64,000 bases of DNA from Candidatus Omnitrophota bacterium (GCA_028712175.1 JAQTQQ010000003.1:71093-135092), one strand, 5' to 3'; shown: positions 3,732 through 36,773, numbered from the stretch's first letter. Made by a program: numbers and translations. Notes: a model not told the origin generated them from the letters alone.

Positions 3732-4724
3732 ATGGGTATAAAATGGAGAGATTTTCAATTTCCTAAAAAGCTTGAATGTGACGAGTCGACATATACTGAT
3801 ACCTACGGTAAATTTCAGGCAGCTCCTTTTGAAAGAGGATATGGTGTTACTCTGGGCAATTCCTTAAGAAGGGTTTTGCTTTCTTCAATAGAGGGCAGTG
3901 CAATTACCGCGATTAAGGTTGCCGGAGTTGCGCATGAATTTTCGACAATTCCCGGAGTACTGGAGGACGTACCGGAGATTATCCTAAATATCAAAAGCCT
4001 TGTTTTAAATTCGCATTCTAAGATCCCTAAAACTATATATTTAAAAGCGGATAAAAAAGGCGAGGTTAAGGCCAAAGATATAGAAACGGATGAAACTATT
4101 GAGATTATTAATCCGGAATTACACATTGCAACTCTTACCAAAGATACCAAGTTGAATATTGAGATGGAGGTATCCCGCGGCAGAGGATATGTTCCGGCGG
4201 AGCTGAATAAAAGAGAAGATAAGGTAGCCGGTTTTATCGCAATTGATTCAATATTTACTCCCATTAAGAAGATCAATTATTTTGTTGAGAATACGCGCGT
4301 AGGGCAACGTACTGACTATGATAAACTGATCTTAGAGATTTGGACTAACGGTAGCATTAATCCAAAAGACGCGCTGCTTTATGCCTCAAATATTTTACAA
4401 AGGCACCTCGATATTTTTGTTAATTTCGGGCAGCTCCCGGAAGATATCGCGGAAGAAGAGCCGGAGATGACCAAAGAAGATGCGGCGCTTTATGAGAAAT
4501 TAAGGTTGCCGATTTCAGAACTCGAGCTTTCAGTAAGAAGTTCCAACTGTTTAAGAGAAGCCGGTATTAAGACTATCGCAGATCTGGTTAAGAAGACCGA
4601 AGAAGAGATGCTTGGTTTTAAGAATTTCGGCAAGAAATCTCTAACCGAAATTCAAGAGCTGTTAATGGGTATGGGAGTTACTCTGGGGATGCAGGTCGAT
4701 CCTAAGAAAATCAAGAAGGGTTAA
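3732..4724 (+). CDS. rpoA: DNA-directed RNA polymerase alpha subunit
   Basis: 330 aa with an N-terminal dimerisation domain and a C-terminal alphaCTD (helix-hairpin-helix ...LELSVRSSNCLREAGIKTIADLV...). Confidence 0.9.
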   Translation: MGIKWRDFQFPKKLECDESTYTDTYGKFQAAPFERGYGVTLGNSLRRVLLSSIEGSAITAIKVAGVAHEFSTIPGVLEDVPEIILNIKSLVLNSHSKIPKTIYLKADKKGEVKAKDIETDETIEIINPELHIATLTKDTKLNIEMEVSRGRGYVPAELNKREDKVAGFIAIDSIFTPIKKINYFVENTRVGQRTDYDKLILEIWTNGSINPKDALLYASNILQRHLDIFVNFGQLPEDIAEEEPEMTKEDAALYEKLRLPISELELSVRSSNCLREAGIKTIADLVKKTEEEMLGFKNFGKKSLTEIQELLMGMGVTLGMQVDPKKIKKG

Positions 4725-4729
4725 ATAAA

Positions 4730-5299
4730 ATGAGACATGGAAAAAAAAGGATGCAGCTGGGGCGTTTCACCAGCTGGCACGATGCGACAATAACAAGCTT
4801 AGCGAAAAATATGATTATTTGCCAAAGTATTAAAACTACACTGGTAAGGGCTAAGTCTAGCAGGCCAACAGTCGAGAAGCTTATAACTTTGGCCAAAACA
4901 AATACTCTTTTTGCACGCAGGCAGGCGCAGAAGATTTTAGGTGAACACAGACTGGTAAATGTTCTTTTTAACGATATCGGCCCGCGTTTTTCCAAGCGTA
5001 ACAGCGGTTTTACCAGGATTATCAGTTTAGGAAAGCGCCGCGGCGATAATGCGGAAATGGTTATTTTCGAGATGACCGAATTAAAGAAAAAAGAAACAAA
5101 AAAACCTAAAGCAGCCAAAGAAGCTGATCATAAGTCCGAGGTAGGAATAGAGAAAGCTGCCGACGGAAAAGAAACTGGTGAACAAAAGAAAGAAACTAAA
5201 ACGGCTGTTAAAGAAAAACCTGTTGATGAAAAGAAGCCGCCCAAAAAATTTATGGGCGGCTTAAGAACCATATTCAGAAAGAAAAGTGATTCTTTGTAA
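4730..5299 (+). CDS. rplQ: 50S ribosomal protein L17 with about 70-aa K/E-rich C-terminal extension
   Basis: N-terminal 120 aa is L17-like (MRHGKKRMQLGR...RRQAQKIL). It is followed by a low-complexity Lys/Glu/Thr-rich tail (KKKETKKPKAAKEADHK...KKPPKKF...). Confidence 0.8.
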   Translation: MRHGKKRMQLGRFTSWHDATITSLAKNMIICQSIKTTLVRAKSSRPTVEKLITLAKTNTLFARRQAQKILGEHRLVNVLFNDIGPRFSKRNSGFTRIISLGKRRGDNAEMVIFEMTELKKKETKKPKAAKEADHKSEVGIEKAADGKETGEQKKETKTAVKEKPVDEKKPPKKFMGGLRTIFRKKSDSL

Positions 5300-5390
5300 A
5301 TATCATTCCGCGCCTCTAAATATTTTAGTTATTAAGCCTTAAGATCAATGGGCTGAATAAAAAGACGGTGCGGGATAAAGAAAAACTTTT

Positions 5391-6566
5391 ATGAAAATAG
5401 ATACTAGGCTTGCGGAGAGGCTAAAAAAAATTCATCCGTCTTCAACTTTGGCAATTACCTCAAAAGCTAAAAAGCTGAAGACGGAAGGCAAGGATATTGT
5501 TAATTTTGCCGCAGGCGAACCGGATTTTGATACCCCTGATTTTATAAAAGAAGCGGCAATAGGCGCCATAAAATCCGGGTTTACCAAATATACCCCCACC
5601 ACTGGAACTCCTGAATTAAAAAAACTCATCTGCCAGAAATTTAAACGGGATAACTCCTTGGAATACTCCCCGGACCAGGTTATTGTTTCAAACGGGGCAA
5701 AGCACAGCATTTATAATGCGCTCATGGTGTTGTTAAACCGTTCCGATGAGGCGCTTATTCCTTCGCCTTACTGGGTAAGCTATCCTGAAATGGTCAATCT
5801 TTGCGAGGGTACCTGCCGTTTTATAAAAACTACCGCTGCAAATAATTTTAAGATATGCGTAGCAGAGCTTATCAAGCATATTACCCCAAAAACTAAAGTG
5901 CTTATACTTAATAGCCCATCTAACCCGACTGGTTCTGTTTATAACAGAAAAGAATTGGAGGCTATTGCCAGAGTCTGTGTTGATAAAAATATTTTTGTGA
6001 TTAGCGATGAGATTTATGAGAAAATAATCTTTGACGGGCTGAAGCATGAATCAATCGCCAGCTTTAATAAGGATATTTATAATCTTACGATTACGGTCAA
6101 TGGCCTGTCGAAAAGCCATTCAATGACCGGATGGCGTATTGGCTATCTTGGGGCGCCAAGCGATGTGGCGGGTGCAATCTCAAACTTACAGGACCATTCA
6201 ACTTCTAACCCGAACTCTATCGCGCAAAAGGCAGCAGTGTGTGCTTTAAGCGCGCCTGAAGATTTCTCCAATAAGCTGTGCAAGGAGTTTGAGAAGAGAC
6301 GGGACTATTTGGTATCAAGGCTCAAGGAAATTAAGCCTTTAAGTTTTTGCCAGCCGCAAGGCGCATTTTACATGTTTTGTAATATATCCGGGACAAAACT
6401 TGATTCTATGGTTTTTGCCCGTCGCCTTCTCGATGAAAAATATGTAAGCGTTATTCCCGGAAGTGCGTTTGGCATGGATAACTACATACGTATAAGTTAT
6501 GCTACAAGCATAGAGGAATTAGAAAAGGGCATGGATAGGCTCAAAGACTGGGTTGTTAAATTATGA
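5391..6566 (+). CDS. Class I/II PLP-dependent aminotransferase (aspartate/aromatic aminotransferase-like)
   Basis: 391 aa. Fold-type I motifs are present: N-terminal NFAAGEPDF, the SxxxxxTGWRIGY region, and the PLP-lysine region ...LSKSHSMTGWRIGY. Confidence 0.75.
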   Translation: MKIDTRLAERLKKIHPSSTLAITSKAKKLKTEGKDIVNFAAGEPDFDTPDFIKEAAIGAIKSGFTKYTPTTGTPELKKLICQKFKRDNSLEYSPDQVIVSNGAKHSIYNALMVLLNRSDEALIPSPYWVSYPEMVNLCEGTCRFIKTTAANNFKICVAELIKHITPKTKVLILNSPSNPTGSVYNRKELEAIARVCVDKNIFVISDEIYEKIIFDGLKHESIASFNKDIYNLTITVNGLSKSHSMTGWRIGYLGAPSDVAGAISNLQDHSTSNPNSIAQKAAVCALSAPEDFSNKLCKEFEKRRDYLVSRLKEIKPLSFCQPQGAFYMFCNISGTKLDSMVFARRLLDEKYVSVIPGSAFGMDNYIRISYATSIEELEKGMDRLKDWVVKL

Positions 6567-7819
6567 GTGGCCAAACAATAGCTGAAAAGATTTTAAGTAA
6601 GCACGCAGGGAGATATTTACGGGCGGGCGATTTTGCTATTTGTAAAATTGATTTTGCATTCGGCCAAGACGGCACCTCATCGATAATAATCGACCGGATT
6701 AAAGATTTAGGGGTTAAGAAATTTAAGACACGCTATTGCATGGTTATTGACCACAGCGCCCCAAGCCCAAGCGAAGGGGTTTCCCGGGTGCATAAAAAGA
6801 TGCGCGATTTTTCTCAAAAGTTTAAGACGGAGATTTTTGATGTTGGCTGCGGGGTATGCCATCAGGTTATTCCTGAGTCGGGAAATATCATACCCGGCGA
6901 CCTAGTTTTGGGAGCTGACTCTCATACCTGCACCTATGGTGCGCTTGGGGCTTTTTCTACCGGAGTCGGTTCTACTGATTTAGCAGTTGCTCTTGCTACG
7001 GGGAAAAATTGGTTTAAAGTCCCGGAGACTATAAAAATTATTATTAAAGGCAGGATGCCTAAAGGAGTTTTTGCCAAAGATATAATTTTATATATTATCG
7101 GAGAACTTAAGAGTGACGGAGGAACATATAAAGCAGTTGAATTTACCGGCCCGGTGATTGATAATATGGGAATGGACGGCCGCTTTACTATTGCTAATAT
7201 GCTGGTTGAGATGGGGGCAAAAGCAGGTTTTATGCCGGTTGATAAAAAGACTCTTTCCTGGTTGGCTTTGAGGGCGGGGATAAACCGGCGGATTGAAGGT
7301 GTTTCTGCGGATAAAGGAGCTGTCTATCAGAATATTTATGAATTTGATATTTCAAAACTCAAGCCGATGGTTTCTATGCCGCACAGCGTTGACAATACTG
7401 CCTCGGCAGTTTCTCTAAAGAAAACAAAGATTGATGAAGCGTTTTTAGGCACCTGTACTAATGGCCGTATAGATGATTTTAAAGCGGCAGCAAAAGTTTT
7501 AAATAAGCGCAAAGTTTCTAGCCAGGTTAAATTGATCATAGCTCCCAGTTCGAGGCAGGTTTATCTGGAGGCTTTAAAGCTTGGCCTTGTTGAGGTGTTT
7601 ATTAAAGCCGGGGCAGTTATTGTTGCGCCCGGTTGCGGGCCTTGTGTCGGTACACATAACGGCATCCCCAGTGACGCGGAGGTTGTCATTTCAACTGCCA
7701 ACCGTAATTTTAAGGGAAGGATGGGGAATCCTTCGGCTTTTATCTATTTGGCATCACCTGCTACAGTCGCTGCTTCGGCGATTAAAGGCTATATTAGCGA
7801 CCCAAGAATCTACTTCTAA
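6563..7819 (+). CDS. leuC: Aconitase-family dehydratase large subunit (3-isopropylmalate dehydratase/homoaconitase LeuC-like)
   Basis: 418 aa aconitase catalytic domain with CxxC...C Fe-S ligands (GTCTNGR, CGPCVG). Substrate specificity (leu vs homoaconitate vs citramalate) is not decidable from sequence. Confidence 0.8.
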   Translation: MSGQTIAEKILSKHAGRYLRAGDFAICKIDFAFGQDGTSSIIIDRIKDLGVKKFKTRYCMVIDHSAPSPSEGVSRVHKKMRDFSQKFKTEIFDVGCGVCHQVIPESGNIIPGDLVLGADSHTCTYGALGAFSTGVGSTDLAVALATGKNWFKVPETIKIIIKGRMPKGVFAKDIILYIIGELKSDGGTYKAVEFTGPVIDNMGMDGRFTIANMLVEMGAKAGFMPVDKKTLSWLALRAGINRRIEGVSADKGAVYQNIYEFDISKLKPMVSMPHSVDNTASAVSLKKTKIDEAFLGTCTNGRIDDFKAAAKVLNKRKVSSQVKLIIAPSSRQVYLEALKLGLVEVFIKAGAVIVAPGCGPCVGTHNGIPSDAEVVISTANRNFKGRMGNPSAFIYLASPATVAASAIKGYISDPRIYF

Positions 7820-16346: not shown

Positions 16347-17024
16347 ATGCGCATTTGCGTAATTATTCCAGCTTATAACGAAGCAAAAGAAATCGCAGGC
16401 TTAATTAGGCGTATAACCGGGTTAGGCTTGGAGGTAATTATAATCGATGACGGCTCTCTGGATGATACGGCGATGATTGCCGCTTCAGCCGGGGCGAATG
16501 TTTTGCGTAATAGCTCAAATGCCGGTAAGGGGGCAGCCTTAATTAAGGGGTATAGTTATGCCGTTGCCCATGGTTTTGATGCGGTAATAAGTATGGATGG
16601 CGATGGTCAGCATTCTTGCCTTGATATAGAAACATTCATTCAAAAAGCGAAAACTTCGCCTGCCGCAGTTATTGCCGGTAACCGTATGGCAATGACTAAA
16701 GGGATGCCTGCTTTACGTGTTTTAACCAATCGTCTTATGTCGCGCCTGATTTCGTTAATTACCAAACAATATATTCCCGATACCCAGTGTGGGTTCCGCC
16801 TGATAAAAAAAGAGGTCCTTGCAGGGTTAGATTTTTCTACTACTAAATATGAGACTGAATCTGAAATTTTGATCAAGGCGGCGCGTTTAGGCTTTAAAAT
16901 TGAATCTGTCCCGGTCAAAACAATATATTCCGGACAAAAAAGCCAGATTAATCCCGTTATTGACACCTTAAGGTTTTTTCGTTTTATAATCCTTGAGTTT
17001 TTAAGGAGCTTTAAACATGCTTGA
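16347..17024 (+). CDS. GT2 polyprenol-phosphate glycosyltransferase (GtrB/dolichol-P-mannose synthase-like)
   Basis: MRICVIIPAYNE... DDGSxD ... DGDGQH motifs. Start is chosen at ATG 16347, just after the upstream stop. The ORF-track start at 16311 overlaps the previous gene. Confidence 0.8.
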   Translation: MRICVIIPAYNEAKEIAGLIRRITGLGLEVIIIDDGSLDDTAMIAASAGANVLRNSSNAGKGAALIKGYSYAVAHGFDAVISMDGDGQHSCLDIETFIQKAKTSPAAVIAGNRMAMTKGMPALRVLTNRLMSRLISLITKQYIPDTQCGFRLIKKEVLAGLDFSTTKYETESEILIKAARLGFKIESVPVKTIYSGQKSQINPVIDTLRFFRFIILEFLRSFKHA

Positions 17025-17514
17025 AATAATCCTGCATTGGGCAGGGCAGTTTCCTAAAGATTATGTAGTGATAATTGTGGGAGCGCTGCCTGTTTCGGAG
17101 CTAAGAGGCGCGATACCGCTTGCGTTATCATTCGGAATGTCTATGGAGCGTGCATTTTGGCTTTCTGTTTTAGGTAACTGTATTATTGTTGCACCTGCGC
17201 TTTTTCTTTTTGAGCCGGTCAGCGGGTTTTTAAGAAAATTTAAAATCTGGTCACGTTTTTTCGACTGGCTGTTTGAACGTACAAAAAAGAATTCTGATTC
17301 TGTGCAAAAATATGAGGCTTTGGGGCTGGCTATCCTTGTCGCTATACCGCTTCCTATGACCGGGGCATGGAGCGGGATAATTGCTGCCTCTCTTTTTAAG
17401 ATTCGTTTTCGCTATGCGTTTGCCGCAATAATTACCGGCATATTTTGCGCGGGGCTTATTGTTTCGGCATTATGTTCTTTGGGCATATTAAGTTGGAAGG
17501 CGGTTAGCGGATGA
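17017..17514 (+). CDS. Small multi-TM membrane protein (COG2426/small multidrug export-like)
   Basis: 165 aa with four predicted TM helices and an ...ALPVSELRGAIPLAL... motif. Co-transcribed with GT2. Confidence 0.5.
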   Translation: MLEIILHWAGQFPKDYVVIIVGALPVSELRGAIPLALSFGMSMERAFWLSVLGNCIIVAPALFLFEPVSGFLRKFKIWSRFFDWLFERTKKNSDSVQKYEALGLAILVAIPLPMTGAWSGIIAASLFKIRFRYAFAAIITGIFCAGLIVSALCSLGILSWKAVSG

Positions 17515-18014
17515 TCCAGGTATATACAGGTAATGGTAAAGGTAAGACTACTGCTTCAATCGGTTTAGCTTTAAGGGCCGCAGGAGCAGGAAAGAATGTT
17601 TATATCGCGCAATTTGCCAAGGGCCGCCTTTACAGCGAAATAAAGGCACTTAGGAGATTTAACAATATTAAAGTGGAGCAATTCGGCAGGCGTTGTTTTA
17701 TAAAGAAAACTCCGGAAAGAGTTGATATTCAGATGGCTAATAAAGGGTTAAAGCGCGCCGGCGAAATTATTTCTAAAAAGAAGTTTCAGTTAGTCATACT
17801 GGATGAAATCAATATTGCTGTTAAGTTAAAATTACTCTCTTTAGGCGATTTGCTTAAATTAATAAAGAGCGCGCCTAGGTCTATGGAATTAATCCTTACA
17901 GGCCGTTACGCCCATCCCAAAGTTATTGGCTTAGCCGATTTAGTCAGTGAAGTCAAAGAATTGAAACATTACTATAATAAAGGCATTAAAGCACGCCGCG
18001 GAATCGAATTCTAA
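17511..18014 (+). CDS. cobO: Cob(I)yrinic acid a,c-diamide / corrinoid adenosyltransferase (CobO/BtuR family)
   Basis: MIQVYTGNGKGKTTASIGLALRAAGAG P-loop. 167 aa. Confidence 0.85.
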   Translation: MIQVYTGNGKGKTTASIGLALRAAGAGKNVYIAQFAKGRLYSEIKALRRFNNIKVEQFGRRCFIKKTPERVDIQMANKGLKRAGEIISKKKFQLVILDEINIAVKLKLLSLGDLLKLIKSAPRSMELILTGRYAHPKVIGLADLVSEVKELKHYYNKGIKARRGIEF

Positions 18015-18163: not shown

Positions 18164-19396
18164 TTGTCAGGGGTATCTGATATGTTGAATGATAATTTGA
18201 ATAAAATGAATAATCCAGCGGACAGTCTGGTCCTATATATTTTGCGCAATACAATAGAAGAAAAAGATGGTTTCAAAATAAAAGATATAATTGCAGGCGG
18301 AATTATTGATTGGGCAAGATTTAAAGATCTGATTATTTGCCATGAGATTGTTGTTATTGCATATTTGGGGCTTAAACCGTATTTTTCTTTGTTGCCGCTT
18401 AAACTGGCTGAATTCTTGAGGGATAGATATTATGCTAATATTGTGCGTTGCCAGCGTCTCCAGCAGGCTTTTTTAGGGATAACCGAGGCAAGTAATAGGC
18501 TGGGGATAAGCGTTGTGCCGATAAAGGGAGTAGCTTTGCTGGAAGACATTTACAAGGGCAGAAATTTGAGGCAAATGGCAGATATTGATATATTGGTTAA
18601 AGAAAATGATTTTTCAAAGCTGGAAGGTGTGCTCTATGGTTTGGGTTACAAAAAAGAATTAGGCGGATTAAAAGAGGGGTATTGGAAGAAAAGCCAATGC
18701 CATATTAGTTTTTTAAAGAAGGAGTCAGGCAATATTACTTTGTTCATAGATGCGCATTGGGCGCTTGATTTTAAACGAAAGAACAGGGTTCTCTTGCCGA
18801 AACTGTGGGATAGGGTCAGAAAACTTGATTTTCAGGGCCGGAATATAGAAGTGCTCTCTCCGGAAGATACTTTTATCAGCTTGGCCATGCATAACCGCAG
18901 GTTTGGCAGGGTACTCGGTTTTAAAAACATTTGTGACTCGGCTTTGCTGCTGGATAAATATGCTTCTTGTTTTGATTGGAGTTATGTCCTAGAGGAAAGC
19001 AGAAAATCAAAATTTTGCTCAACCGTATTCTTTGCGCTTTGTTGCGTAAAGATTCTGTTTTCTGCGCATATCCCTGATTTTGTTTGGAAAGAATTAAAAG
19101 TGGGCAGGTGGAAAAGATTGATTACAACCAGATTCATTGAGAGAAATATTTATTATCCGGTTGACTTTACGCAGGACAAGGATATTTATTTAAAGGCGCA
19201 CTTTCTTCTTTATGACAGCATATTAGAGCCTATAACATATATTCTAAACATACCGCAGGAGCAATTCGCAAAATTTTATAATCTTGTCCAGTATAGCAGG
19301 ATAACCGGTTTTTTTTACCGGTGCCGTTTTCTTTATATTCCGTTTAAGGCAATTTTCTTTAAAAACAAAAATGGTGCGCTAAGACATTCTAAATAG
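18164..19396 (+). CDS. PF14907-like (NTP_transf_5) uncharacterised nucleotidyltransferase family protein
   Basis: 410 aa. ...PIKGVALLEDIYKGRNLRQMADIDILVKENDFSKLEGVLYGLGY... and ...LFIDAHWAL... resemble the Pol-beta-type NTase family that co-occurs with HPr-kinase-like and PqqD genes. Start is TTG 18164 (GGGAGG 12 nt upstream) or ATG 18182. Confidence 0.6.
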   Translation: MSGVSDMLNDNLNKMNNPADSLVLYILRNTIEEKDGFKIKDIIAGGIIDWARFKDLIICHEIVVIAYLGLKPYFSLLPLKLAEFLRDRYYANIVRCQRLQQAFLGITEASNRLGISVVPIKGVALLEDIYKGRNLRQMADIDILVKENDFSKLEGVLYGLGYKKELGGLKEGYWKKSQCHISFLKKESGNITLFIDAHWALDFKRKNRVLLPKLWDRVRKLDFQGRNIEVLSPEDTFISLAMHNRRFGRVLGFKNICDSALLLDKYASCFDWSYVLEESRKSKFCSTVFFALCCVKILFSAHIPDFVWKELKVGRWKRLITTRFIERNIYYPVDFTQDKDIYLKAHFLLYDSILEPITYILNIPQEQFAKFYNLVQYSRITGFFYRCRFLYIPFKAIFFKNKNGALRHSK

Positions 19397-19434
19397 GAAA
19401 ACGGTCAATTTTTTAATCCTGTTTTATATATACT

Positions 19435-19463
19435 TGTTTAAGGGCAGAATATCTGTTACAATT
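19435..19463 (+). promoter_or_regulatory. sigma70-type promoter (TTGTTT-17-TACAAT) upstream of precursor peptide
   Basis: TTGTTT at 19435-19440. Spacer is 17 nt. TACAAT at 19458-19463. Confidence 0.4.
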
Positions 19464-19545
19464 ATTAAAGAAATGATCACTCTATTTTAAAATCCTTTAT
19501 TATGTTGCTTGATTCCTGCAGAGTTGCAAGAAAAGGGGAGATCGG

Positions 19546-19725
19546 ATGCCAAAGAGTAAATTAACCGTTAAAAAGAAATGGGTTGCGCCAAAGCTTAAGA
19601 CAATGTTATTAACAGAAGTTGATGCGCATTTGGCTACCTGTATTAAGTCGGCCGAGTTTGTTAGACCTGCGGATCCGCCAACTTGCCGCGGCCTCGGTAG
19701 CTGTAGCCGTCCTTTTAATAGCTAA
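19546..19725 (+). CDS. Candidate RiPP precursor peptide (59 aa; below ORF-track cutoff)
   Basis: ATG at 19546 is preceded by GGGGAG 5 nt upstream. Translation is MPKSKLTVKKKWVAPKLKTMLLTEVDAHLATCIKSAEFVRPADPPTCRGLGSCSRPFNS. It has a basic leader with W-x-A-P...L-T-E-V and a core with 3 Cys and a C-terminal Ser. It sits between the NTase gene and the HprK-like/rSAM genes. Confidence 0.6.
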   Translation: MPKSKLTVKKKWVAPKLKTMLLTEVDAHLATCIKSAEFVRPADPPTCRGLGSCSRPFNS

Positions 19726-19772
19726 ATTTTAAGCTATCCTGCTATATTCAAAAAAAGATTTTTTCATTAATA

Positions 19773-20633
19773 ATGAGTCCTGCCAGTGATCCTGTAAGAA
19801 ACGATTCTTTTTTAACCATCTCTATAGCTGATATTAAAATTAGGTTTGAGGCTTTAAACAGCCGCCTTCTTAAAAGCCTAAAAGTCCATTATGGTGGTTT
19901 TTGCATATCAAGTGCCATTTCTGATGTCGCGATACGCTTAATTGAAAGGAAAATCTCTGTACCCAACGGTTCTGCGCTATTATACAAAAATAGGACGTGG
20001 AGCGTAGTAAAAGATTCTAAATACAAATGGATCATTTTTTCTGATAATTCGGTTGCCTGTTGCTCGCATGATTGGAGCAGGGTAGATTTCTTTAGCGAAG
20101 GCCCACGGCAGCAATTGCTTTTTTTCTTGTTGCCGGAAATATTGACGATATCCGCATTGCCCAAATTTAAAGGATTAATGGCCCATGGCTGTGGCGTGTT
20201 AGACAGAACAGGAAAGCAGGGCTGGGCTTTTTTAGCTTCTTCTGGCGGAGGAAAGTCTACTATGGCCGGGCTGCTTAAACCCTACGTACGTGTTTTAAAT
20301 GATGATAGAATTATTTTGCGTAAAACTAAGGACGGGGTAAGAATGTATGGGACGCCCTGGCATGGGGAATTATCATTGACTTCATCAAAATCCGTATTGA
20401 TTAGGGATATCTATTTTTTGCAAAAAGCGGGTATTCATAGCATTAATTCAATGAGCAAATTGATATTCCTGAAAGGTTTATTAAAAAATACTGCTTTGCC
20501 TAAATGGGATAACAATGCATATAGGATCACTCTGCGGCTGTTATTTTTTCTGGCGGAATATATGTGCGGCAAAAAGTTGCATTTTGCTAAAAACAGTTCA
20601 GTGTATGGATATATTAAAAGGGAATTGACTTAA
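19773..20633 (+). CDS. HPr kinase/phosphorylase C-terminal-domain-like putative peptide Ser kinase
   Basis: 286 aa. ...MAHGCGVLDRTGKQGWAFLASSGGGKSTMAGLL...VLNDDRIIL... is a P-loop of the HprK-related type (cf. HprK GDSGVGKSE). There is no HprK N-domain. Confidence 0.65.
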   Translation: MSPASDPVRNDSFLTISIADIKIRFEALNSRLLKSLKVHYGGFCISSAISDVAIRLIERKISVPNGSALLYKNRTWSVVKDSKYKWIIFSDNSVACCSHDWSRVDFFSEGPRQQLLFFLLPEILTISALPKFKGLMAHGCGVLDRTGKQGWAFLASSGGGKSTMAGLLKPYVRVLNDDRIILRKTKDGVRMYGTPWHGELSLTSSKSVLIRDIYFLQKAGIHSINSMSKLIFLKGLLKNTALPKWDNNAYRITLRLLFFLAEYMCGKKLHFAKNSSVYGYIKRELT

Positions 20634-20635
20634 GA

Positions 20636-22042
20636 ATGATGCAAGAAGAGGAAATGTTTATCCCTCCGGATGTTGCCTGGCGCCCTGTGGGAGACCGTTT
20701 AGTTGTAATTAAAATTGCATCTGGCCAGCATCCCGAGCATACGATTACCGAGTTAAATAGAGAAGCCGCTCTTATTTGGAAGTTTTTTTCCGAAACAGGG
20801 CTAAGCCATGGCCGGCTCATTGCAAAATTAATGCCGCATTATAATATAAACCGGTCAAGCATGGCTTCGGATATCTCGGCATTTTTGAATAAGGCTATCG
20901 CAAAAGGGCTGCTTCAGAAAACAACTAAAAAAAAGAGCTTTCGGGATGGCCGCCTTGCTTCCCAAGATTTTCCGGTATGGACGGAATATTTCTCTTACTG
21001 TTTTAAAAATCTCATCCCTTATTCAGCGACATTGGAATTAAATACTACCTGTAACCAAAGATGCCTGCACTGTTATAATAACGGACACGGAGAAGCCGGT
21101 TTATCGGCAAAATTGGTTTATAGCGCTTTAGACCAGCTTTCCGATTTGGGAACGATTATTCTCTTGCTTAGCGGAGGCGAGCCTTTGATGCGGAAGGATT
21201 TTTTTAAATTGGCTGCATATGCGCGACAAAGGCATTTTGCCTTAAGAATATTTACTAACGCAACATTAATTGATGAAGAAAGCGCAAAGAAAATCAGCCA
21301 GTTATACCCAATGACTGTTGAAACGAGCCTGTATGGCATATCAAGCCGGGTGCATGAACGGATTACGCAGCGTAAGGGGTCTTTTATGCGTACGATAAAA
21401 GCAATCCGTTTCTTGAAGAAATACCAGGTTCCGGTATTTGTTAAAGTGGTTTTGATGCGTGAAAACGCTGTAGAGATAAAACGGTTGGAGGATTTTGTAG
21501 TTAACATATTAGGAGTTGGGTTTCGTGGTGTAAGCCCTATTATAACCCCAAAAACATCCGGCAATTTTTTGCCCATGAAGCATGTTGTTTCTCGAAATAT
21601 GCTGAAAGAGTATTTAAACAGCTTGCGATATACTGCCTCGGGATTAAAGGCTAAGCCAATGGTTGATAAGAGCAGCAATAAGGCAATAAATAAAGGCCGC
21701 TTGTGTGGTTCCGGAAGGACTACGATTTATATAAATGCAAAAGGCAGACTCTCTCCTTGCTTAGAAGCAGAAACCACAAGCTGGAATATAAAAAAAGATC
21801 GTATTCGTGATTTTTGGCAGAATTCAAGCGAACTTGCGGCGCTTAGATCGTTATCTCCGGAAGCATTGGTGCAGTGTAAGGCCTGTCCGGACAAAGAATT
21901 TTGTATTTTTTCCTGCATTGCTTTATCAAAAAAAATATATGGCGATTATGCCGTTCCTATTAAAAAATATTGTGAATTTACAAAGGTATACAGGGCTTCT
22001 TCTGTAGCAAGCCGAGTGGATCAAAAGAGGCAGTTTATTTAA
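20636..22042 (+). CDS. PqqD-like RRE domain fused to radical SAM / SPASM-domain peptide maturase
   Basis: N-terminal roughly 95 aa is PqqD-like (WRPVGDRLVVIKIASGQHPEHTITELNREAALIWKFF..., ...ISAFLNKAIAKGLL). rSAM cluster CNQRCLHCYN plus LLSGGEPLM. C-terminal SPASM cysteines CGSGRTTIYINAKGRLSPC...CKACPDKEFC. Confidence 0.8.
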   Translation: MMQEEEMFIPPDVAWRPVGDRLVVIKIASGQHPEHTITELNREAALIWKFFSETGLSHGRLIAKLMPHYNINRSSMASDISAFLNKAIAKGLLQKTTKKKSFRDGRLASQDFPVWTEYFSYCFKNLIPYSATLELNTTCNQRCLHCYNNGHGEAGLSAKLVYSALDQLSDLGTIILLLSGGEPLMRKDFFKLAAYARQRHFALRIFTNATLIDEESAKKISQLYPMTVETSLYGISSRVHERITQRKGSFMRTIKAIRFLKKYQVPVFVKVVLMRENAVEIKRLEDFVVNILGVGFRGVSPIITPKTSGNFLPMKHVVSRNMLKEYLNSLRYTASGLKAKPMVDKSSNKAINKGRLCGSGRTTIYINAKGRLSPCLEAETTSWNIKKDRIRDFWQNSSELAALRSLSPEALVQCKACPDKEFCIFSCIALSKKIYGDYAVPIKKYCEFTKVYRASSVASRVDQKRQFI

Positions 22043-22144: not shown

Positions 22145-22645
22145 ATGCTAGCAATTAGTTTAATTTTAATCGGAATATTATTCAGGTTTATACCGCATAC
22201 CGCAAATTTTACCCCAGTGGCTGCGATTGCTTTGTTTGCCGGGGTATATTTAAACAAAAAACAGGCTTTAATTGTGCCGCTTTTACTTATGATTATAAGC
22301 GACATTTTCTTAGGAATGCATAATGTGGTTATTTTTACCTGGGGAAGTTTTCTTCTTGTTACCCTTGTTGGCTTTTGGGCAAGAGGCCGTAAGAGCGTCA
22401 GGCGAACGGTTTTTGCAACAATAGTTTCTTCTGTTTTATTTTATCTGGTAACTAATTTTGGTGTTTGGTCCATGGGTTGGTATCCTCAGAATTTAAAAGG
22501 ATTATTGGACTGCTATATTCTGGGCCTGCCATTTTTACGCATATTTAGTATTTCGACTCTTTTATATACGGCAATTTTCTTTGGTGCTTACGAATTAATT
22601 GCTTCAAAGCTCCGTAATACAAAATTAGCCAAAGTTCTTTTGTAA
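22145..22645 (+). CDS. Small polytopic membrane protein (5 TM; ECF-S-component-like, function unknown)
   Basis: 166 aa, very hydrophobic, no catalytic motifs. Last gene of the RiPP-like cluster. Confidence 0.5.
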   Translation: MLAISLILIGILFRFIPHTANFTPVAAIALFAGVYLNKKQALIVPLLLMIISDIFLGMHNVVIFTWGSFLLVTLVGFWARGRKSVRRTVFATIVSSVLFYLVTNFGVWSMGWYPQNLKGLLDCYILGLPFLRIFSISTLLYTAIFFGAYELIASKLRNTKLAKVLL

Positions 22646-22661
22646 TAAGTTTTAAAAAACA

Positions 22662-22932
22662 GGTTTGTTAAGAGCAAGGGAAGGCCGTGTAAATCGGCCA
22701 CAGTTCCCGCTGCTGTAACTCCGCCCTTTTAAGGGAACCAATTTGGTAAGTTTTATGCCACTGTCTATAATGGATGGGAAGGCAAGCCAAAAAGGCGGAG
22801 GAGTCAGAAGACCTCTCTTAGGCAAACGAAATTGTTCAATGCGACTTTTAAGCCCGCGGACAGGCTTAAATGGGTTAAAAAGCAGGGATAACCCTTGAGT
22901 TAATTTTATTAAACTCAAGGGTTTTTTGTTTT
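22662..22932 (+). promoter_or_regulatory. Cobalamin riboswitch with terminator/antiterminator expression platform
   Basis: Core AGCAAGGGAAGGCCGTGTAAATCGGCCACAGTTCCCGCTGCTGTAAC matches the B12-element consensus (AGGGAA..GGTGnAAnTCC...CCCGCnaCTGTAA). A second GCCACTG box lies at about 22757. The 3' end has the alternative hairpins GGGTTAaaaagcagggaTAACCC versus aacccttgagtt...aactcaaggg plus a T-run. Confidence 0.65.
22890..22932 (+). terminator. Intrinsic terminator of riboswitch expression platform
   Basis: aacccttgagtt-aattttatta-aactcaaggg followed by ttttttgtttt. Confidence 0.6.
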
Positions 22933-22954: not shown

Positions 22955-24964
22955 ATGATGTTGTGGAATAAATTAGCGGCACAGTTTTTGGTTTTATTAA
23001 CACTTGTTTTAGGGATGTTTGTTTTTGGGTACGCAGAGGATGTGGATTTAGAAAAGATTGTAGTGACTCCGTATCGCTATAGTGAAAGCATGGGAAATAC
23101 TCCCGCCAGCATTTCTGTAATTAATTCCGATGAAATATTTGATTCCGCCTCGTTTAGTACCGTGGGGATCTTATCAGGGTTGCCCGGAGTGGTGGTTAGG
23201 GATTGGTCAGGTAACGGCTCTAAGGCGACTGTAGATATCAGGGGTTTTGGAGAGCAGGCAGGCATGAATGTGCTTGTGTTAATAAATGGCAGGCGGGTAA
23301 ATGAAATTGATTTGTCCGGGACGGACTGGACGCAAATACCTGTGGATCAGATAGAAAGAATTGAGGTTTTAAGGGGCGGGTTTGGCGCTGTGTTATATGG
23401 GGACAACGCTACAAGCGGAGTAATAAATATAATTACAAAGAGAGGCGGACCAGAGCCTTTGTCCACAGAGCTTATTGCTGAATACGGCAGTTATGATATG
23501 AATAAACAGGCAATTAATTTAAGCGGCACAGTCAGTAATTTTAATTATATTTTATCTACCAGCAGAGAAGGCACGCATGGTTATAGGAATAATACTTATT
23601 TTAACGGAGCGGATTTTTCAACCCGGCTTGATTATAAAATAGATGCTACAGATACATTGTTACGTTTTAGCCAGGCCTATAACAAGTCTAATTATGGGCT
23701 TCCCGGCGCGCTTTCTACGGCAAATTTAGCCCGATTCAACCGAAGGTATTCTGCCTACGGCGATGATCACGCTAAAGATATTGATTATAATTTTGTCCTG
23801 GGGTTTGACCAGGCAACAGGAGATTACGGTAAGTTTTCTTTTGATACGTCGTACCGTAAGCGCAGAACTTTCACGAATTTTATCGGGGCAAACGGAGGGT
23901 ATAACCCTATTATTAAATCCAGCATCAATACGATCGGATTTAATCCTAAATATGTATTTGAAAAAACTTTATTTTCATTGAATAATAAAGCGATATTAGG
24001 CTCGGATTTTTACCGCTACGACCTGCAGTCAGATACTTATGATTTGTCAGTAATTAAACAAAGCGATAATTACGTAAGAAAAACCTCTGCCGCTTTATAC
24101 CTGCAGGACGAGCTTAAGCTTAATGAAAGGATTACGCTTACCGCTGGCTATCGCTACGAAAATATTAATTATGATTTTAATTACAACGATTATTCCGCGT
24201 TTTTCCCGAATCCTCCGGTTGATTCAAAGACGGGATTAAATGCGGTTGCTTATAATGTCGGTTTAGCTTACAAGTATGATAATGGAAATTTATTCATTAA
24301 TCATAACAAGGGGTTTAGGTCGCCGGCTGTTGATGAGTATTTTGTCTATGGGGTATTTAATCCTTCGCTTAAAGACCAGGAAAGCAAGAATATTGAGTTT
24401 GGTGTTCAACATAAAATATCCGACCGTTTAAGTTTTGAGTTTTCCGCTTACCTGATGAACCTTAAAAATGAACTCTATTACAATCCCGCCACATTTAATA
24501 ATGAGAATTATGATAAGACGCGACATCAGGGTATTGAGTTTGTATTTAAGGCTGGCCTGCCTTGGAATTTTAAGCTGTCCGGAAACTATACTTTTGATCA
24601 GGCCGTATTTAAAGAAGGCGATTATAAGGATAAAAGCATCCCTATGGTCCCGGAGCATAAGTTTAATTTAAACCTTGCCTATCCAGTTACAAAATATCTT
24701 ACTTGGAGTTTTTCTTCTAATTATTGGAGCAGCAGCTACTTTATCAATGACCAGTCAAACAGGTGGCCAAGGTTAAAGCAGATGTTTACTTTGGATAGCG
24801 GGCTGGTTTTCGGAAAAGATGACTATAAGCTAAGCTGTGGTATTAATAATATTTTTAATGAAAAGTATTATGAATATGGGGTTTGTAACGCTACAAGCGG
24901 CGCGGTAAATTATTACCCGGCTAGCGGAAGGAATTTCTTCATTAAAGCTACCCGCAAGTTTTAG
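22955..24964 (+). CDS. btuB: TonB-dependent outer-membrane receptor (BtuB-like cobalamin receptor)
   Basis: 669 aa with a signal peptide, a TonB box/plug (DLEKIVVTPYRYSE), a 22-strand barrel region and a C-terminal aromatic (...ATRKF). Immediately downstream of the cobalamin riboswitch. Confidence 0.8.
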   Translation: MMLWNKLAAQFLVLLTLVLGMFVFGYAEDVDLEKIVVTPYRYSESMGNTPASISVINSDEIFDSASFSTVGILSGLPGVVVRDWSGNGSKATVDIRGFGEQAGMNVLVLINGRRVNEIDLSGTDWTQIPVDQIERIEVLRGGFGAVLYGDNATSGVINIITKRGGPEPLSTELIAEYGSYDMNKQAINLSGTVSNFNYILSTSREGTHGYRNNTYFNGADFSTRLDYKIDATDTLLRFSQAYNKSNYGLPGALSTANLARFNRRYSAYGDDHAKDIDYNFVLGFDQATGDYGKFSFDTSYRKRRTFTNFIGANGGYNPIIKSSINTIGFNPKYVFEKTLFSLNNKAILGSDFYRYDLQSDTYDLSVIKQSDNYVRKTSAALYLQDELKLNERITLTAGYRYENINYDFNYNDYSAFFPNPPVDSKTGLNAVAYNVGLAYKYDNGNLFINHNKGFRSPAVDEYFVYGVFNPSLKDQESKNIEFGVQHKISDRLSFEFSAYLMNLKNELYYNPATFNNENYDKTRHQGIEFVFKAGLPWNFKLSGNYTFDQAVFKEGDYKDKSIPMVPEHKFNLNLAYPVTKYLTWSFSSNYWSSSYFINDQSNRWPRLKQMFTLDSGLVFGKDDYKLSCGINNIFNEKYYEYGVCNATSGAVNYYPASGRNFFIKATRKF

Positions 24965-25911: not shown

Positions 25912-25948
25912 ATTAGTCTAAAATTTAATACGAAAGGAGATGATTAGA

Positions 25949-26110
25949 TTGACTCAGGTTGAAATCAAGAAAGACGAATCTTTTGAGTCTGCTTTGCGCA
26001 GGTTTAAGAAAAAGATTGAGCAGGAAGGCATCTTGCGCGAGGTCCGCGACCGCAAACATTACGAAAAACCAAGCGAGCGAAAAAGAAAAAAAGCAAAATC
26101 CAGAAAATAA
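25949..26110 (+). CDS. rpsU: 30S ribosomal protein S21 (short form, TTG start; not in ORF track)
   Basis: Translation [53 protein letters not shown]. The [12 protein letters not shown]...[14 protein letters not shown] core is diagnostic of S21. GGAG lies 9 nt upstream of the TTG. Confidence 0.8.
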
Positions 26111-36702: not shown

Positions 36703-36773
36703 GCGAGCGTAGTTCAGTGGTAGAACACTAGCTTCCCAAGCTAGATATGGGGGTTCGATTCCCCTCGCTCGCT
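36703..36773 (+). tRNA. tRNA-Gly (anticodon CCC)
   Basis: Cloverleaf: GCGAGCG acceptor, GTTC/GAAC D-stem, CTAGC-TTCCCAA-GCTAG anticodon arm (CCC), GGGGT-TCGATTC-CCCCT T-arm. CCA is not encoded. Confidence 0.85.

Follow-up and report, generated by a model that had tools for sequence, protein, structure and literature searches.

A small gene in a radical SAM cassette

The window analysed here is a stretch of 64,000 nucleotides (nt) from a Candidatus Omnitrophota bacterium (GCA_028712175.1 JAQTQQ010000003.1:71093-135092). Within it, a first-pass annotation had singled out a small open reading frame (ORF), at positions 19546-19725 of the + strand, as a candidate precursor peptide gene. The present analysis deals with this ORF, with the enzymes encoded beside it and with its relatives in other genomes, and considers its likely role as the precursor of a peptide that is made on the ribosome and modified after translation (RiPP). 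The cassette also encodes a nucleotidyltransferase, a ScmC-like P-loop phosphotransferase, and a fusion of a PqqD-type RiPP recognition element (RRE) with a radical S-adenosylmethionine (SAM) enzyme carrying a SPASM domain. The features are as follows, lengths being given in amino acids (aa).

19546-19725, + strand: putative precursor gene of 59 codons and a stop; product MPKSKLTVKKKWVAPKLKTMLLTEVDAHLATCIKSAEFVRPADPPTCRGLGSCSRPFNS
19535-19540, + strand: Shine-Dalgarno sequence GGGGAG, 5 nt spacing to the ATG, read in the sequence
19434-19462, + strand: promoter-like element TTGTTT-17 nt-TACAAT, weak (-35 at 19434-19439, -10 at 19457-19462)
19546-19632, + strand: putative leader, residues 1-29, with a [YW]xxPx[LIV] motif of the RRE-binding type; leader/core boundary predicted
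19633-19722, + strand: putative core, residues 30-59, ATCIKSAEFVRPADPPTCRGLGSCSRPFNS; boundary predicted
19639-19641, 19684-19686, 19702-19704 and 19720-19722, + strand: core codons for Cys32, Cys47, Cys53 and Ser59, respectively
19773-20633, + strand: ScmC-like P-loop phosphotransferase gene, 286 aa; candidate peptide kinase
20636-22042, + strand: PqqD(RRE)-radical SAM-SPASM fusion gene, 468 aa; PF05402, PF04055 and PF13186 above gathering scores
18164-19396, + strand: gene for an NTP_transf_5 nucleotidyltransferase, starting at TTG 18164, 410 aa; PF14907, E=1.2e-42, 146.6 bits; candidate for the second C-terminal tailoring enzyme

The ORF at 19546-19725 is a genuine coding gene whose product is a small peptide. 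It exists as the first-pass annotation described it, with ATG 19546 as the earliest start codon past the upstream in-frame stop; the predicted ribosome-binding site is present at its position, and the 59-aa translation contains the three cysteines (Cys32, Cys47 and Cys53) and the terminal Ser59 that had been noted. The length of the ORF is by itself weak evidence, as an ORF of at least 59 aa occurs in 7% of shuffles of the 376-nt spacer. Its composition sets it apart, the GC content being 45% in the ORF versus 31% and 19% in the flanks, so that the ORF forms a GC island. Gene finders predict the identical product on 7 contigs that stem from other samples. At 59 aa, this key gene of the cluster is hidden by the 60-aa annotation cutoff. 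The promoter that had been proposed fares less well: the TTGTTT-17-TACAAT element is present, with a TG two bases ahead of the -10 hexamer and 83 nt between the end of the latter and the ATG, but its -35 hexamer agrees with the consensus at 3/6 positions only, and for this reason the element is absent from the list of the promoter scan. That scan found 13 promoter-like sites in the AT-rich region versus 13.3 expected; such sites thus occur at chance frequency, and the element is therefore weak evidence of a promoter.

A family of small peptides encoded upstream of ScmC-like proteins

Loci related to the cassette were collected by anchoring on the ScmC-like protein, in a scan limited to one genome per species that confirmed at least 537 loci, 80 of which were fetched. 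The fetched loci come from Acidobacteriota, Desulfobacterota, Fermentibacteria, Aminicenantes, Nitrospirota, Omnitrophota, Chloroflexia, Clostridia and others. Compared with all ORFs of these 80 loci, the window peptide gives weak matches only, yet the best of them are all small + strand ORFs located immediately 5′ of the ScmC-like gene and usually sitting between the radical SAM and ScmC-like genes, with an evident pattern in common. A word-index search with the window peptide alone returned only the peptide itself; this homology is visible only via the neighbouring gene. According to a first hidden Markov model (HMM) built from 69 of the small ORFs upstream of ScmC-like genes, an ORF of 50-60 aa lies just 5′ of the ScmC-like gene in 75/80 loci, and 3 of the 5 loci without one are contigs that end at the ScmC-like gene. 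The distance from the precursor stop codon to the ScmC-like start has a median of 57 nt in the 75 loci, versus 47 nt in the window.

Alignment of the family yields the consensus x5-K-K-x-Y-x-K-P-x-[ILV]-x-x-V-x-L-x-x-E-E-A-V-L-x-x-C-K-x(12-14)-C-x(4-6)-C-x(4-6)-G-S. Exactly three Cys are found in 251/265 members, and 261/265 have Ser or Thr at the C-terminus. Between the Cys residues, the core is hypervariable in both sequence and length, with the three Cys remaining invariant in the alignment. Among nine close ungapped pairs of family genes, 141 codon differences are synonymous versus 47 non-synonymous; these pairs were picked for few amino-acid changes, which biases the ratio, yet the synonymous excess is large. 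The first-pass annotation had held that a frame not kept in orthologous loci would speak against a precursor gene, and that the Cys and the leader motif should be conserved as third codon positions vary. The small ORF is instead retained in 75/80 loci, and both the Cys and the W/Y-x-x-P leader are kept, with codon differences among close relatives that are mostly synonymous.

A profile search of 1.84 billion representatives retrieved at least 1,665 proteins (50%-identity clusters) at E≤0.001. All family members carrying a source name are called 'hypothetical protein', none has a Pfam domain, and Pfam and NCBIfam scans of six typical members assigned no family. The full-text literature outside subscription-only journals gave no description of the cassette or of the precursor family and yielded only papers on lasso peptides. 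Judged by these searches, the putative precursor family is large, unnamed and unannotated, and spans many mostly uncultured phyla.

Some loci carry more than one copy of cassette genes. One locus (L043) has three tandem precursor paralogues (4629-4754, 4972-5103 and 5311-5472) with near-identical leaders, two of which stop right after the leader and represent truncated cores or pseudogenes. Another (L035) has two precursor genes (5415-5582 and 7420-7731), and a third (L033) has a duplicated set with two radical SAM and two ScmC-like genes (659-1300, 1794-2741, 4392-5381 and 5881-6747).

Placement of the window peptide in the family

The relationship of the window peptide to this family was assessed with an HMM built from 258 family members, the window peptide being left out, and searched against the 750 window ORFs of at least 20 aa. 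The ORF at 19546-19725 is the sole significant match (16.1 bits, E=3.1e-4), the runner-up being the gene for ribosomal protein S21 with a non-significant 6.9 bits. The S21 gene (25940-26110, + strand) matched the family HMM through RKHYEKP, and the short leader motif alone is therefore not specific. Among 10,390 locus ORFs, a profile likewise built without it gives the window peptide 15.9 bits (E=0.0048) and the next non-member 8.0 bits. Neither Pfam nor NCBIfam has a model that matches the window peptide at E≤0.01.

In the alignment, P15, L22, C32, C47 and C53 of the window peptide fall in invariant columns, W12 aligns to the Tyr column and S59 to the terminal Ser/Thr column. An independent test of register is provided by the distance from the aromatic residue of [YW]xxP to the first Cys, which is 20 residues in 249/250 members as well as in the window peptide. 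The Cys spacers are 14/5/5 in the window versus family modes of 13/4/5, the family ranges being 10-18/3-11/3-10. The closest member is P0363, with which the window peptide has CR(S/G)LGSC in common. The signature of the typical subgroup, i.e., E-E-A-V-L, Lys at +1 and a terminal Gly-Ser/Thr (82-98% conserved), is not found in the window peptide; this signature is not part of the family definition. The window peptide is thus a divergent, outlying member of the ScmC-adjacent precursor family.

Enzymes encoded by the cassette

In the fusion protein, the PqqD domain covers residues 35-93, the radical SAM domain residues 136-287 and the SPASM domain residues 357-418. The translation contains CNQRCLHC (CX3CX2C), CX12GX4C and CX2CX5CX3C motifs, and the SPASM Cys pattern is complete. 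The nearest solved structures are those of the sactipeptide synthase SkfB (E=2e-17), the ranthipeptide/SCIFF maturase CteB (5wgg, E=1.6e-10) and PqqE (E=3.5e-8), and weak NCBIfam matches are to StsB, PapB and AlbA. Scores against NCBIfam models are 99.4 bits versus 400 for ScmE, 76.9 versus 400 for ScmF, 98.5 versus 265 for MftC, and 85 bits for PqqE (TIGR02109); the enzymes of a typical family cassette likewise score far below the curated cutoffs. A PqqD::radical SAM fusion is found in 12/80 loci, and the typical cassette also has a separate PqqD gene.

The ScmC-like protein has numerous relatives, the nearest of which are about 30% identical. The precomputed Pfam match of this protein and its relatives is PF27840 (ScmC), faint for the window protein. 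Its AlphaFold model is confident, with a predicted local distance difference test score (pLDDT) of 91.9; the protein has the PEPCK/HprK fold together with the H...GxxGxGKS...DD catalytic motif. In the lasso peptide kinase BsfK, the validated form of this motif is H148-G163-G166-G168-K169-S170-D186-D187 (PMC10368454); the window protein has H138, A155, G158, G160, K161, S162, D177 and D178, i.e., 7/8 of the motif residues. The ScmC-like family invariably keeps the Lys-Ser of Walker A as well as the His and Asp-Asp found in lasso peptide kinases. Identification as HprK by sequence was rejected, as there is no HprK Pfam match and the HprK_rel_B model TIGR04355 gives only E=7e-6 and 25 bits versus a cutoff of 200. 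Given its fold and motif, the ScmC-like protein is a candidate for the Ser59 peptide kinase. Of the neighbours implied by the first-pass annotation, the PqqD-type RRE is found, fused to the radical SAM/SPASM enzyme, and the HprK-like kinase takes the form of a P-loop enzyme of PEPCK/HprK fold, but one that Pfam does not recognize as HprK.

The NTP_transf_5 product, which was called as 404 aa in one other assembly, contains an A-D-I-D-I-L DxD motif, and homologues occur in 36/80 related cassettes. The usual order in the 80 loci is radical SAM, ScmC-like and, often, NTP_transf_5; the order of the window, NTP_transf_5-precursor-ScmC-like-radical SAM, is found in 0/80. A common component of the related loci, found in 62/80 (e.g., L088 8858-9892 and L087 8866-9900), is a 344-aa protein in which a signal-peptidase-I-like (S26/S24) domain is fused to a GNAT acetyltransferase; it is a candidate leader peptidase plus N-acetylase. 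No homologue of this fusion is found across the whole 64-kb window. Of two annotated cassettes that were inspected, one has ATP-binding cassette (ABC) transporter genes next to it.

A terminator-like hairpin (ACCGGT-T7-ACCGGT with a T-rich tail) is located at 19304-19322 on the + strand, within the 3′ end of the NTP_transf_5 ORF and beyond the part of NTP_transf_5 that is alignable to homologues.

Proposed function of the peptide

It appears likely that the product of 19546-19725 is a RiPP precursor, namely a divergent member of a large unnamed family always encoded just 5′ of a ScmC-like kinase gene, and that it enters a radical SAM RiPP pathway with proposed cross-linking, phosphorylation and extension. 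The neighbouring enzymes probably cross-link and decorate the peptide. The candidate precursor reading put forward by the first-pass annotation is thereby supported; thioether formation and phosphorylation of Ser59, which it had also raised, we infer.

The precedents are found in published lasso peptide systems. In lasso precursors, homologues of HPr kinase place a phosphate on the C-terminal Ser, to which, in pseudomycoidin, a nucleotidyltransferase of the cluster attaches one or two hexoses (PMC8498205). The precursor of the bsf cluster has a YxxPxL leader motif, and the PqqD-type RRE BsfB1 greatly enhances the activity of BsfK, which requires the leader and does not accept the core alone as a substrate; the RRE binds the YxxPxL motif of lasso leaders (PMC10368454). 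The cassette has in common with these systems the leader motif, the RRE, the kinase fold and motif, the nucleotidyltransferase and the terminal Ser/Thr, hence the following four-step proposal. The leader would be bound via W12-x-x-P15-x-L17, within the segment K9-K-K-W12-V-A-P15-K-L17 (nt 19570-19596), by the PqqD domain of the radical SAM fusion. The radical SAM/SPASM enzyme would then cross-link the core at the three invariant Cys, most likely through thioethers of a sactipeptide- or ranthipeptide-like kind. The ScmC-like enzyme would phosphorylate Ser59, probably in a leader- and RRE-dependent manner like the lasso peptide kinases. Finally, NTP_transf_5 would add a glycosyl or nucleotidyl group to the Ser59 phosphate, as in pseudomycoidin. 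Leader removal and export, if they occur, rely on unlinked genes. The first-pass annotation had described the leader as PqqA-like; the aromatic-x-x-Pro motif is indeed conserved, but the peptide is not a PqqA, and its leader is better viewed as the lasso YxxPxL type bound by RREs. We read the peptide as working most like a radical SAM RiPP with lasso-style C-terminal tailoring, the window copy being reduced.

Several observations weigh against this reading. The window peptide is an outlier with a modest profile score. It has W in place of Y at position 12, as in 1/250 of the three-Cys members, and V-D-A-H-L in place of E-E-A-V-L at -7 to -3 of the first Cys. This Cys is followed by Ile and then Lys, Lys being at +1 in 98% of members, and the terminus is Asn-Ser, compared with the Gly-Ser/Thr of 85% of members. 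The window enzymes are 24-31% identical to their nearest relatives, with no intermediates in the databases searched. The six other contigs carrying the peptide have zero substitutions within the ORF, and such identical copies, the only ones available from this lineage, give no evidence of selection on the window ORF. The radical SAM enzyme scores below every curated NCBIfam cutoff. In the ScmC-like protein, Ala155 occupies the first Gly of the kinase motif, where the family consensus has Gly; Pfam finds no HprK match at E≤1, and the comparison of the family profile with PDB HprK is weak (E=0.064) and confined to the P-loop with the Asp-Asp-Arg after it. The window cassette has neither a linked protease nor a linked exporter, and it lacks an ABC transporter.

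Comparison with known systems

The closest known systems are those that tailor the C-terminus of lasso peptides, with the kinases PadeK and BsfK and the nucleotidyltransferases PsmN and BsfN (paeninodin, pseudomycoidin and the bsf cluster). As in these systems, the window precursor ends in Ser, has an aromatic-x-x-Pro-x-Leu leader motif (WVAPKL, residues 12-17) and is encoded along with a PqqD-type RRE domain, a P-loop kinase with 7/8 residues of H...GxxGxGKS...DD and an 'uncharacterised nucleotidyltransferase'. The differences lie in the core machinery: the window has a radical SAM/SPASM enzyme in place of the cyclase and B2 protease, the core has three invariant Cys and no Gly/Asp-Glu macrolactam pair, and the kinase is of the ScmC type, with no match to an HprK Pfam model. 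A lasso peptide was rejected because neither an Asn-synthetase-like lasso cyclase nor a transglutaminase-like lasso B2 leader protease is found within 10 kb on either side (Pfam content of called genes).

The SynChlorMet cassette (ScmC TIGR04249, ScmD TIGR04248, ScmE TIGR04250 and ScmF TIGR04251) likewise combines ScmC-type, PqqD-family and PqqE-like radical SAM/SPASM proteins. Unlike it, the window cassette has one radical SAM enzyme rather than two, as well as an NTP_transf_5 gene, and a precursor family is evident in cassettes of the window type. The TIGRFAMs text is not known to identify a precursor for the SCM cassette. Membership in the SynChlorMet system was rejected, since ScmE and ScmF scores are far below their cutoffs and the window protein has no ScmC match at E≤0.01; the ScmC TIGR model gives a typical relative 34 bits against a cutoff of 125.

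With sactipeptide and ranthipeptide systems (SkfB, AlbA and StsB; CteB and PapB), the cassette has in common a Cys-bearing core and a radical SAM enzyme that carries an RRE at its N terminus as well as a full SPASM domain. In contrast, its leader and core are unrelated to SCIFF and known sactipeptide precursors, a kinase and a nucleotidyltransferase are added, and the terminal Ser/Thr is near-invariant. As the chemistry of the cross-link is not something that the sequence reveals, neither the sactipeptide nor the ranthipeptide label is given.

The cassette also resembles the pyrroloquinoline quinone (PQQ) system, in which a small peptide likewise goes with a domain of PqqD type and a radical SAM/SPASM enzyme; that of the window is PqqE-like (85 bits, TIGR02109), but for both PqqE and PqqD the window scores stay far short of the cutoffs. 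The N-terminal motif K-W-x-x-P-x-hydrophobic is common to PqqA and the window peptide. PqqA itself was rejected, as the window peptide has no Glu-x3-Tyr and no Tyr at all and matches none of the PqqA models, and as PqqB and PqqC are missing within 10 kb on either side. The mycofactocin system (MftA/B/C) similarly uses a PqqD-like chaperone and a radical SAM/SPASM enzyme on a small peptide with a conserved C-terminus, which in MftA is the part that is modified. The window-type peptides differ in their Gly/Asn-Ser terminus, which replaces Val-Tyr, and in their three invariant Cys, and MftD and MftE are lacking. None of the PqqB/PqqC- or MftD/MftE-like genes is found within 10 kb on either side, by the Pfam content of called genes.

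Alternative explanations

It is highly improbable, and already largely refuted, that the ORF arose by chance in a non-coding spacer that serves as the promoter or regulatory region of the ScmC-like gene or encodes a structured RNA. An ORF of this length in 7% of shuffled spacers, a profile score of just 16 bits and the lack of a Pfam or NCBIfam match would fit such a spacer, but not the exact family register (an offset of 20 residues, a terminal Ser and three Cys that align to invariant columns), the conserved position 5′ of the ScmC-like gene, the strong ribosome-binding site or the GC island. As for the structured RNA that the first-pass annotation had named as a competing function for this region, 18800-20300 contains nothing that Rfam recognizes at E≤1, and folding of 19397-19772 is no better than that of shuffled sequences (z=+0.82), i.e., there is no excess folding energy.

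Granting a precursor, its fate may be viewed in other ways. The peptide could be sacrificed to make a small-molecule cofactor, as happens with PQQ and mycofactocin, and not give rise to a peptide natural product; the enzymes would then build a small moiety from the invariant C-terminal Gly-Ser (Asn-Ser in the window) and the rest would be discarded. The PqqD/PqqE-like architecture, the weak similarity to MftC (98.5 bits) and PqqE, a C-terminal residue conserved as in MftA, the lack of an exporter or protease in the window cassette and the broad distribution of the cassette over anaerobic phyla all point in this direction. However, a hypervariable core with three invariant Cys is the pattern of a cross-linked peptide, ABC transporter genes stand beside one of the two annotated cassettes that were inspected, genes of the PqqB/C or MftD/E kind are missing within 10 kb on either side, and the curated cofactor models all remain far below their cutoffs, so that we hold a cofactor precursor to be quite unlikely. 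It is also unlikely that the peptide is a true precursor for the radical SAM enzyme but that the ScmC-like protein is not the Ser59 kinase, acting as a scaffold, a chaperone or an ATP-dependent enzyme at another site, with the terminal Ser/Thr kept for recognition or C-terminal processing. Against this stand the invariance of the Walker A Lys-Ser, His and Asp-Asp in the family, the near universality of the terminal Ser/Thr, the constant adjacency of the precursor and ScmC-like genes, and the fact that lasso systems use the same pair of kinase and nucleotidyltransferase on a C-terminal Ser; the arguments in its favour are the missing HprK Pfam match, the Ala in place of the first Gly of the kinase motif in the window protein, and the presence of NTP_transf_5 in only 36/80 loci.

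A possible new RiPP class

Returning to the reading of the peptide as a radical SAM RiPP precursor with a phosphorylated C-terminus, a broader proposal may be put forward tentatively. It is possible, though we would not yet lean towards it, that the cassette represents a new RiPP class, in which radical SAM cross-links at three Cys are combined with a phosphorylated C-terminal Ser/Thr that is then glycosylated or nucleotidylated. Such a class would be a hybrid of a lasso-type module (leader, RRE, kinase and nucleotidyltransferase) and a core machinery of the sactipeptide/ranthipeptide type, spread over many mostly uncultured phyla, with the window copy being a stripped-down one from a deeply divergent Omnitrophota lineage. 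If the chemistry proposed for the cassette holds, more than 1,000 unannotated small genes gain a role, ScmC-type cassettes gain a substrate, and C-terminal phospho-tailoring, known so far in lasso peptides only, extends to radical SAM RiPPs. It would also provide targets for heterologous expression from phyla in which hardly any natural products have been characterised, such as Omnitrophota, Acidobacteriota, Aminicenantes, Fermentibacteria and Desulfobacterota.

Genomic surroundings of the cassette

The RiPP cassette is flanked by a CobA/BtuR corrinoid adenosyltransferase gene and a gene for a DUF6580 membrane protein. A cobalamin riboswitch (RF00174, 75 bits) lies at 22654-22834 on the + strand, directly 5′ of a TonB-dependent receptor gene. 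With the riboswitch, the TonB receptor and CobA/BtuR around it, the cassette is therefore located within a B12-uptake neighbourhood, the genes of which lie at 17511-18014, 22145-22645 and 22955-24964. In the operon just 5′ of the cassette, a PF06695 'small multidrug export protein' gene is found at 17017-17514 on the + strand; no other export-like gene lies nearby, and in other loci it is not seen linked to the cassette. Farther downstream, a tRNA gene (RF00005, 73.5 bits) is located at 36703-36773 on the + strand.

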